Under the pieces are notes generated by a model that was not told the origin of the DNA, did no database searches, and worked only from the letters and a program-made list of their open reading frames with translations. Position numbers and translations under genes: made by a program. From a virus (lineage: Duplodnaviria > Heunggongvirae > Uroviricota > Caudoviricetes), in IMG/VR virus record IMGVR_UViG_2534681673_000007, positions 1-37,562 of that record: 37,562 nt of DNA. One strand, written 5' to 3'. Position 1 is the stretch's first letter; every line of letters starts with the position of its first letter. Of the stretch, positions 27,359 to 29,009 are shown in pieces.

Positions 27359-27497
27359 TCAGGCGGCTGCACCCGCCGTTTTCTCGTACTTACTGATAGT
27401 GATCTCGACCTTCCCTTCCGGGATAACCGGTCCCCACTCCACCAGCATTCTTTTCACCTGACTGTCGTCTTCCCACACACCCGCGTGGGTCAGGGCG
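27359..27497 (-). pseudogene. rusA: rusA Holliday-junction resolvase, C-terminal fragment displaced by IS insertion
   Basis: Hand translation continuing from the N-terminal fragment across the IS: ALTHAGVWEDDSQVKRMLVEWGPVIPEGKVEITISKYEKTAGAAA, then stop. Confidence 0.7.
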
Positions 27498-27505
27498 TGT
27501 AGTGG

Positions 27506-28683
27506 TCAAGTAATATTGGCCACGGTTTTACAGTAAAAATGGTATCTGTTCTCTGACTCTTCCGGCGTCAGCCCACCGTTATAATGGTGAGGTCTGACGC
27601 TGTTGTAGTAGTTCAATATGTAATCATTAATTTGCTGCCGGGCCTCGTCCTTGCCTGCGTAACCATTCGTTGGCACCCATTCTGTTTTCAGACTGCGGAA
27701 GAAGCGTTCCATGGGGCTGTTATCCCAGCAGTTTCCCCGCCGACTGACGCTTTGATTTATTCTGCAACGCCAGAGAAGTTGTTGATATTTAAGGCCTGTA
27801 TACTGGCTTCCCTGGTCGCTATGGAACACGACATCCCGGGGTTGGCCACGCGTCTCATAGGCCATCCGCAGGGCACTGCTTATCAGTGCGGTATCGGCAT
27901 GCGCTGACAGACTCCAGCCGATAACCCTGCGGGCAAAAAGATCCATAACAACCGCCAGATAGCACCAGCGATTTCCTGCCCAGAGATACGTAATATCTCC
28001 ACACCATACCCGGTCTGGCTCCGGTACTGCGAACTGACGCTCAAGCAGATTCGGCAGGCTGGTATGCTCCTGACGGGCATTTTTATACTGATGTTTTCCG
28101 GGCTGACAACTGCTCAGGTTCAGATATTTCATCAGACGTCCGGCACGGTAACGGCTCATCGGGACGCCGTTTTGAGTCAGCATTTCAGCCAGAGTGCGCG
28201 CGCCCGCAGAGCCCCGACTTTGGTTCCACGCCCGGCGTATTTCGCTGCACAACCTGACTCGTGCCGGATTAACCGTATCGCGTCGTTTTCGCCAGTACCG
28301 GTAACTGCTGCGGTGTATTTCCAGAGCAGAACACAGGCTGACAACCGTGTGGCTGTCACTTAGTCTGGCGGCTATCGTGAACCGTTCAGCGAGTCGGACA
28401 TTAAGAGCGCGGTAGCCTTTTTTAATATCGTATTTTGTTCCTCCAGACGGCGAACTTGCTTTTCCAGCTCGCGGATACGTTGCTGGTCTGGAGTAATGGG
28501 TGTGGCAGAGGGCGTAATACCCTGGCGCTCTCGCCTGAGCTGGCGTACCCAGCTCTCAAGCATGGTTGAACCGACATTCATCGCTTCACTGGCCTGTCGA
28601 TATGAGTAGCCCTTATCAACAATCAGCTGTGCACATTCCAGCCTGAACTCAGGGGTGAAGGTTCGTTTGGTTTTCTTGTTCAT
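27506..28683 (-). CDS. IS3-family transposase OrfAB fusion via programmed -1 frameshift at A_AAA_AAG (28417-28423)
   Basis: The OrfB frame is open from the slippery site (…[11 protein letters not shown]…HRSSYRYW…) into the DDE integrase-core ORF 27506..28252. Confidence 0.75.
28372..28683 (-). CDS. IS3-family transposase OrfA (HTH)
   Basis: Start [13 protein letters not shown] at 28683 with AGGTGA upstream. Ends ...[18 protein letters not shown] just past the A_AAA_AAG site. Confidence 0.8.
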
Positions 28684-28755
28684 TAAGTCACCTGTTTTGT
28701 GTTGTGGTGAGAATATCACCTTTCATCAGGTGGCCAAATTTAGTGTGCCACTACA

Positions 28756-29009
28756 GCGTCAAACAGCGCCTTGTTATAGTTGTCCAGATCGCGGATCCGG
28801 TTATCCGGTGGAAACAACACGATCTCCACTGCAGCAGGTGCCGACGTTGGTTTCGGCAGACGACGTAACTGCTCAACTATTGCTGCGCACGCCGCGCTCT
28901 GGAATTTTCGCCCCGCCGTGCTTATCAGGCTCTTACCAGCAAACGCCCCTTTGTTGGGGTGTCGCCAGTACGTGTTCACGCTGGGCGGAAAAGGCAGAAT
29001 AAGCTTCAT
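28756..29009 (-). pseudogene. rusA: rusA Holliday-junction resolvase, N-terminal fragment (reads into IS end)
   Basis: [17 protein letters not shown]...[12 protein letters not shown], then IS-derived codons VVAH and stop. RusA-like motifs. Confidence 0.7.

Follow-up and report, generated by a model that had tools for sequence, protein, structure and literature searches.

An IS911-like insertion sequence in the rusA gene of an Escherichia coli 5.0588-lineage prophage

The window analysed here, a 37,562-bp stretch of DNA held as IMG/VR virus record IMGVR_UViG_2534681673_000007, is a prophage of the lambdoid-early/myovirus-late type that is located between tRNA-Pro/yejM and yejO in Escherichia coli. 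The early-right operon, on the minus strand, leads from repressor/cro through ymfL, an O-like replication gene, PerC and a gene for a LexA-DNA-binding-domain protein to the resolvase gene rusA, and then continues into kilA-N, a DUF968/HNH gene, the gene for a 250-aa Q antiterminator, and the lysis and structural genes. The operon is tightly packed, with the rusA start overlapping the upstream stop and a gap of 19 nt between rusA and kilA. In the window, rusA is split by an insertion sequence (IS) of the IS3 family, and it is very probable that an IS911-like element transposed into codon 84/85 of rusA in the prophage of the E. coli 5.0588 lineage, and that the insertion is young and clonally inherited. 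A first-pass annotation had placed the element at 27359-29009; these coordinates hold for the span of the disrupted rusA gene, but the IS itself occupies 27498-28755. The features of the interrupted locus, in window positions, are the following.

28756..29009, minus strand: 5' part of rusA, codons 1-84 and 2 nt of codon 85 (Pfam RusA, reconstruction and PDB alignment)
27359..27497, minus strand: 3' part of rusA, running from the last base of codon 84 through codon 129 to the stop, and holding D94/D95 (reconstruction and PDB alignment)
27498..28755, minus strand: IS3-family insertion sequence, 1258 bp, IS911-like and ISEc31-related, with orfA and orfB co-oriented with rusA and the early-right operon of the phage
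28730..28755, minus strand: left inverted repeat (IRL), TGTAGTGGCACACTAAATTTGGCCAC in IS orientation (inverted-repeat finder; aligns to the IRL of an IS911-family copy)
27498..27523, minus strand: right inverted repeat (IRR), in which a TTGACC faces outward at 6 nt from the tip (repeat finder and IS911-family alignment)
28756..28758, unstranded: target-site duplication on the IRL side, GCG on the plus strand and CGC on the coding strand (sequence reading and empty-site alignment)
27495..27497, unstranded: target-site duplication on the IRR side, GCG on the plus strand (sequence reading and empty-site alignment)
28372..28683, minus strand: orfA, 103 aa, with an HTH_Tnp_1 domain and leucine heptads L73/L80/L87/L94; its ATG is at IS position 73 (Pfam and translation)
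28417..28423, minus strand: A_AAA_AAG slippery heptamer for a -1 frameshift, in the orfA 0-frame register, IS positions 333-339
27506..28423, minus strand: orfB frame (-1), giving a fused OrfAB of 392 aa with an rve/DDE domain, D230, D290 and E326 (Pfam, translation and alignment)
28561..28563, minus strand: OrfA codon 41, ATG (Met) where the common IS sequence has ACG (Thr), IS position 194
24778..27339, minus strand: downstream operon genes exposed to possible polarity, namely KilA-N (26542-27339), DUF968/HNH (25545-26540) and Q (24778-25530)

On the window strand the IS segment opens with TGTAGTGGTCAAG at 27498 and closes with GTGCCACTACA at 28755, and its tips read TGTAGTGG...CCACTACA, which are of the TG...CA type. 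The terminal inverted repeats (IRs) recovered by the repeat finder are imperfect, 26 nt long and 1206 nt apart, with 20 of 26 positions matching (77% complementary). The target duplication is perfect, with GCG present exactly at 27495-27497 and 28756-28758, and the rusA coding strand reads CGC (gaC GCt). Both the inverted repeats and the 3-bp GCG duplication had been proposed in the first-pass annotation and were recovered here as described. All five other sites of the ISEc31-like group that were examined also carry 3-bp duplications (CAT, CCA, GCC, TAA and GTC), and an IS911-family copy (L008) is flanked by the 3-bp duplication GAC, which brings the other sites, this one included, to six out of six. 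A resemblance of an IR-like sequence in the flank beside the target, GTGGGTCAGG, to GTGGTCAAG in the IR was also considered, and the similarity was judged too weak.

Removal of the IS and one GCG copy, by joining 29009..28759 to 27497..27359, gave a 390-nt open reading frame (ORF) of exactly 129 aa whose junction reads ...KALFDA|LTHAGVWEDDSQV..., i.e. ...KALFDALTHAGVWEDDSQV.... An intact rusA of 390 nt lies between the LexA-like gene and kilA in strain MLI107 (L003), and this strain supplies the empty site: L003 2050-3999 aligns to window 25549-27498 and L003 3996-8109 to window 28756-32867, the two alignments overlapping by GCG. Strain LH09-a (L007) is collinear across the rusA junction in the same way. 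Alignment to related prophages free of the IS was the check suggested with the earlier claim that the rusA frame continues across the element, and the restored frame aligned without gaps to the uninterrupted genes of both strains, in agreement with that claim. A chance 3-bp repeat, which on its own would be expected 1 time in 64, is ruled out by the empty-site alignments. Between the reconstructed gene and the L003 allele there are differences of 3 nt and 2 aa, and neither half contains a stop or frameshift.

The identification of the interrupted gene as rusA was also sound. Using phmmer, the reconstructed 129-aa protein matched PDB entry 1q8r over residues 3-120 (E = 1.8e-17) with the catalytic residues aligned, and from the alignment with 1q8r and 2h8c, the latter being the D70N variant of K-12 RusA, D74, D76 and K80 are equivalent to D70, D72 and K76 of K-12 RusA, and D94/D95 to D90/D91. 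These K-12 residues are critical for catalysis and belong to the cation-binding site (PMC1636454). Against the K-12-specific NCBIfam model PRK09786 the reconstructed protein scored 69.6 bits, below the cut-off of 200, and it is therefore a member of the RusA family and not the K-12 orthologue. What remains in the window is an ORF at 29009..28740 in which 85 native residues, ending ...KALFDA, are followed by VVAH from the IS end to give 89 aa; it still matches Pfam RusA, and it is identical to EIH04514.1 of E. coli 5.0588. This stub keeps D74, D76 and K80. Because D94/D95 and the C-terminal 44 residues (the C-terminal third) have been lost, there is a strong case that the truncated RusA would have no resolvase activity and that the prophage resolvase is dead. 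The lambda nin5 deletion removes analogous accessory genes and the phage stays viable; the cost of losing rusA is probably modest. Recombination-dependent replication may be affected by the loss, as the first-pass annotation had proposed.

An IS has met a prophage rusA before, in the K-12 alleles rus-1 and rus-2, where IS2 and IS10 lie upstream of the rusA gene of DLP12 (PMC1636454). In those alleles, however, the upstream IS switches a silent rusA on and so suppresses ruv mutations (PMC1636454), whereas the intragenic IS described here would switch rusA off. A set of 87-aa 'partial' RusA proteins from E. coli and Salmonella was considered as a possible source of further insertions at the same site, but these end in the native ...DALT and were rejected as contig-end truncations.

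The insertion is carried by more than one genome. Over 10,270 bp the window matches scaffold AEZK02000026.1 of the E. coli 5.0588 assembly GCA_000215145.2 (L010) at 100% identity. An exact look-up of the 89-aa stub protein returned, besides EIH04514.1, about 28 contigs; the stub was found in 24 read contigs and in 29 blocks of the index, or about 24-29 near-identical assemblies. Two independent SRA-derived assemblies (L009 and L011) carry the same insertion and differ from the window by 0-1 substitution and two homopolymer lengths, and carriers in general differ by 0-1 single-nucleotide polymorphism (SNP) over 8-10 kb. The exact IS-rusA junction was present in 0 of 5426 complete E. coli genomes, and it was found in none of the GTDB species representatives and none of the JGI metagenome contigs. 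Since the junction is absent from the complete genomes and shared by near-identical assemblies, the insertion appears to be recent and restricted to one lineage. The recent date proposed in the first-pass annotation is thus supported, and the rusA halves carry no further lesions. Nothing that was found contradicts the insertion itself.

The coding content of the element agrees with an IS3-family transposon. The A_AAA_AAG heptamer is intact at 28423..28417 and in the correct orfA register, as previously noted, and the -1 frame is open to IS position 1250, giving an OrfAB of 392 aa without stops. Pfam matches were obtained to HTH_Tnp_1 (E = 4.4e-12) and rve (E = 6.1e-27), alignment with the IS911 family identified D230/D290/E326 as the DD(35)E triad, with 35 residues between D290 and E326, and OrfAB scored 359 bits against the NCBIfam IS3 equivalog NF033516, for which the cut-off is 160. 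A length within about 1.2-1.55 kb, TG...CA IRs, an orfA/orfB pair with an A6G site, the helix-turn-helix (HTH), leucine zipper and DD(35)E features of the products, and a duplication of 3-4 bp all fit the IS3 family, to which the element had been assigned in the first-pass annotation. Following the IS3/IS911 paradigm, orfA would be translated conventionally, and some ribosomes would slip -1 at A_AAA_AAG to produce the OrfAB DDE transposase. OrfAB would then make a figure-of-eight leading to a circular IS copy with its ends abutted, the abutted ends would form a junction promoter, and the circle would insert through a 3-bp staggered cut, leaving the GCG duplication.

In tblastn searches of plasmids, OrfAB was 56% identical to transposases named IS911 and ISEc52 by PGAP, about 45% identical to ISKpn37, and about 32% identical to IS150 and IS1133. 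The window IS shares with IS911 the orfA/orfB layout, the A_AAA_AAG site in the same context (ATATTAAAAAAGGCTACCGCGCTCTT), the HTH, the four-heptad leucine zipper, the DD(35)E triad and the 3-bp target duplication, and the IR tips are alike, TG(A/T)AGTGGCACACT... and ...TTGACCACT(T/A)CA. Compared with the IS911-family copy L008, the window IS shows near-complete identity at the IR tips and over about 50 nt around the slippery site, and in both elements, if the ends abut across a spacer of 3 bp, the result is TTGACC-17 nt-CACACT preceded by TG, which in the window IS is (TGg)CACACT. This circle-junction promoter layout is known for IS911 and IS2 (PMC3219604, PMC2909936), and both the copy-out/paste-in mechanism and the promoter Pjunc are documented for the same two elements (PMC2909936, PMC3219604). 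From the matching layout, the abutted ends of the window IS would be predicted to act as a junction promoter as well. The two elements nevertheless differ, with identities of 61.6% in DNA and 56% in OrfAB and lengths of 1258 bp in the window IS and 1249-1250 bp in IS911. These values fall short of the near-identity expected of an IS911 isoform, and on sequence grounds the window IS is a distinct element of the IS911 subgroup and not IS911.

Among named elements the closest is the copy in NZ_CP095529 (L002) to which PGAP gives the label ISEc31; it has the same length of 1258 bp, the same IR tips and organisation, and a 3-bp duplication. The window IS is 92.8% identical to it in DNA (91 nt differences) and 95.4% identical in OrfAB, the comparison being to this PGAP-labelled copy. 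Under the ISfinder convention isoforms share about 95% DNA identity, and by that convention the window IS would, from these sequence identities, count as a separate IS closely related to ISEc31. PGAP names the window-type transposase, WP_085968792.1, only 'IS3 family transposase', and the mentions of ISEc31 in the literature come from resistance-genomics surveys.

Copies at least 99% identical to the window IS were found in 937 E. coli records, at a maximum of 17 places per genome, and such copies are also present in 306 plasmids from Escherichia, Klebsiella, Shigella, Salmonella and others. Species representatives of Kluyvera, Citrobacter, Enterobacter and other genera carry relatives with 90-97% identity, and no full copy was found among 50,697 deposited phage genomes. 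The 5' end of the element also gave a full-length match of 150 bits to the Rfam family isrC, 'Hfq binding RNA' (RF01387), at window 28565-28687 on the minus strand, from 4 nt upstream of the orfA start through the first 119 nt of orfA. Judging from the position of this match, this IS group appears to share homology, at its 5' end, with the Rfam IsrC family. Salmonella IsrC is located between envF and msgA, and an IS origin is not mentioned in its description (PMC2330248). An exact-pattern scan for the Salmonella isrC locus returned nine contigs from other Enterobacterales and Acinetobacter and none from Salmonella.

Compared with the common IS sequence, the window copy is free of indels and differs by one substitution only: IS position 194 (window 28562) is T instead of C, which produces T41M in the HTH of OrfA and OrfAB. 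An exact look-up of the M41 form of OrfA revealed a second context, beside a Rep_3 replication gene in F-like E. coli plasmids. The plasmid copy (2929-4186 in L012 and L014) is identical to the window IS at 1258 of 1258 positions, the M41 codon included, and has its own duplication, GTC; the same plasmid site without the IS was found in many plasmids. As the identical M41 variant is found at two unrelated sites with separate 3-bp duplications, this variant has undergone at least one transposition. The copy beside Rep_3 could have been the donor or the recipient of the rusA copy. The earlier suggestion that the element is possibly active is supported by these data and by the intact ORFs, A6G site, DDE triad and IRs, with the qualification introduced by T41M. 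Thr41 is conserved in the five other copies examined, including the OrfA of a 56%-identical IS911-family element, so that M41 could impair end binding and, with it, the activity of this copy. The predicted RNA fold 3' of the slippery site that might stimulate frameshifting was no better than shuffled controls (z = -0.52).

If T41M abolished or strongly lowered end binding, the rusA copy would be a dead end, and the plasmid copy would be either ancestral or mobilised in trans by a wild-type copy. The invariance of Thr41 even in the distant IS911-family OrfA agrees with this, as does the recovery of the IS inside 12-38 kb contigs of short-read (Logan) assemblies in both contexts, pointing to one copy per genome and no later amplification. 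However, M41 must have been present at one or more transpositions unless the same C>T change arose twice, and IS911-type transposases act preferentially in cis. We therefore regard a dead-end copy as unlikely, and retain the view that the element which entered rusA was possibly active.

The effect of the insertion on the genes beyond rusA is less direct. About 1.26 kb of mostly poorly translated RNA would now lie between the replication and regulator genes and kilA-DUF968-Q, and Rho-dependent polarity may lower the expression of Q, and hence of the late genes, unless the phage antiterminates. Polarity on kilA-DUF968-Q is plausible on this basis. A scan of the IS for intrinsic-terminator-like sites gave none on the transcribed strand, and with a Rho-loading heuristic (C/G ratio in 80-nt windows) no C-rich, G-poor stretch stood out; these results count against a polar effect, which is not predicted by the sequence alone. 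In view of the lack of a visible terminator in the IS, any polarity could arise only through the action of Rho on the poorly translated orfB, and phage antitermination could override it. The kilA-N, DUF968 and Q genes are full length in all carriers. The scan also gave no promoter-like site attributable to the IS that faces kilA, and a hybrid outward promoter was rejected because no -10 element lies 16-18 nt past the IRR TTGACC in the rusA flank. A mosaic boundary was noted at about 25549 in this region: relatives that are 97-99% alike over rusA-kilA-DUF968 carry a short (about 120-aa) Q-family gene, and the window instead has the 250-aa Q (PF03589, 24778-25530) and different lysis genes.

In the homologous 2.1-kb stretch, an IS of this group was present in only two complete E. 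coli genomes (L001 and L002), at the following positions.

L001 3829-5086, same orientation as the window IS: copy with 3 nt differences, at about kilA codon 4 (about window 27327), duplication CAT
L002 3419-4676, same orientation as the window IS: ISEc31-labelled copy, in the middle of kilA (about window 26917), duplication CCA

Together with the window, this amounts to three independent insertions of the ISEc31 group within 580 bp upstream of Q, all in the same orientation. The recurrence is suggestive, if statistically weak, of a preference or selection for blocks upstream of Q. It could accordingly be asked whether the insertion was selected rather than neutral, with a polar block above kilA and Q taming the prophage, reducing lysis and killing on induction, and favouring the host lineage. 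The three co-oriented hits in related prophages (rusA codon 85 in the window, and those of L001 and L002) and the stable inheritance of the insertion in about 24-29 assemblies are in its favour. Three events are nevertheless too few, as P is 0.25 for the common orientation and about 0.07 for the clustering; moreover, the L001 and L002 insertions disrupt kilA itself, the IS has no visible terminator-like site, and carriers keep an intact repressor and late genes like an ordinary lysogen. Selection is accordingly improbable, and slightly more so is the extended form in which the rusA-kilA interval is a recurrent, selected landing site and the co-oriented IS is a polar 'lock' that cuts Q and kilA off from early transcription and tames an inducible prophage; the three insertions are the sole hint of it.

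The possibility that a repeat was misplaced during assembly of a draft genome, for which the draft source and two probable homopolymer errors nearby might be cited, is negligible, since identical junctions occur in independent assemblies (SRR24434806, SRR34046538 and about 20 more), showing that the insertion is real, and an exact 3-bp duplication with exact frame restoration is the product of real transposition. The two homopolymers concern the immunity region. A ymfK-like LexA/S24 repressor gene at window 32001-32674 (plus strand) is frameshifted at about 32231, where the window has A6 and relatives have A7, and a T6 run at about 32703 is T7 in relatives. L009 and L011, which carry the same rusA::IS, have A7, T7 and the full 224-aa repressor, so that both deletions are confined to the 5.0588 draft, and they probably reflect sequencing errors in homopolymers. 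For the same reason, A7 and a full 224-aa repressor in other carriers, the idea that a derepressed prophage survives thanks to the IS serving as a polar lock was discarded.

Several other features of the prophage were recorded. At the tail-fibre end, window 1-774 (plus strand) encodes a GIY-YIG (LEM-3-like) protein with a full-length PADLOC match to PD-T4-3 (E = 3e-140), a known single-gene anti-phage defence, and an Acyl_transf_3 gene comes next at 1323-2390. Between Q and the holin, window 23290-24096 (minus strand) contains a 268-aa ORF that matches phrog_30208 (function unknown) and has no Pfam or PADLOC match. The same slot is occupied in relatives by DUF6602 (L001), a TIR-domain gene (L002), a KAP NTPase (L007), or genes for a nucleoid-associated and a hypothetical protein (L003), a pattern suggestive of a variable slot for morons or defence genes. 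In NZ_AP026937 (L006; strain EC20-4B-2, from fish gut), the integrase end is 100% identical to window 33690-37562, the yfdR region follows the tail-tube gene directly, and the genes for head, lysis, replication and immunity, along with Q and rusA, have all been deleted, indicating a decayed prophage remnant at the same chromosomal site.

The insertion into rusA is an ordinary and well-understood event of a kind already known, in which an abundant, known IS3-family element has, in a single E. coli clone, knocked out a prophage gene that is not essential. Prophage genes disrupted by an IS are found elsewhere in E. coli, IS629 in the prophages of O157 Sakai being an example; the route of decay or domestication is the same common one, a single-gene knock-out with possible polarity, and nothing essential differs here. 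In annotations of this lineage, the 89-aa 'RusA' and the downstream ORF of 39 aa should be treated as a single IS-disrupted pseudogene, and the two IS-rusA junctions are a marker of the E. coli 5.0588 clone. The occurrence of one IS variant in both this prophage and F-like plasmids illustrates ordinary plasmid-to-prophage IS traffic. The prophage itself is left without a non-essential recombination accessory, and its Q-dependent late expression may drop, with an effect on inducibility.

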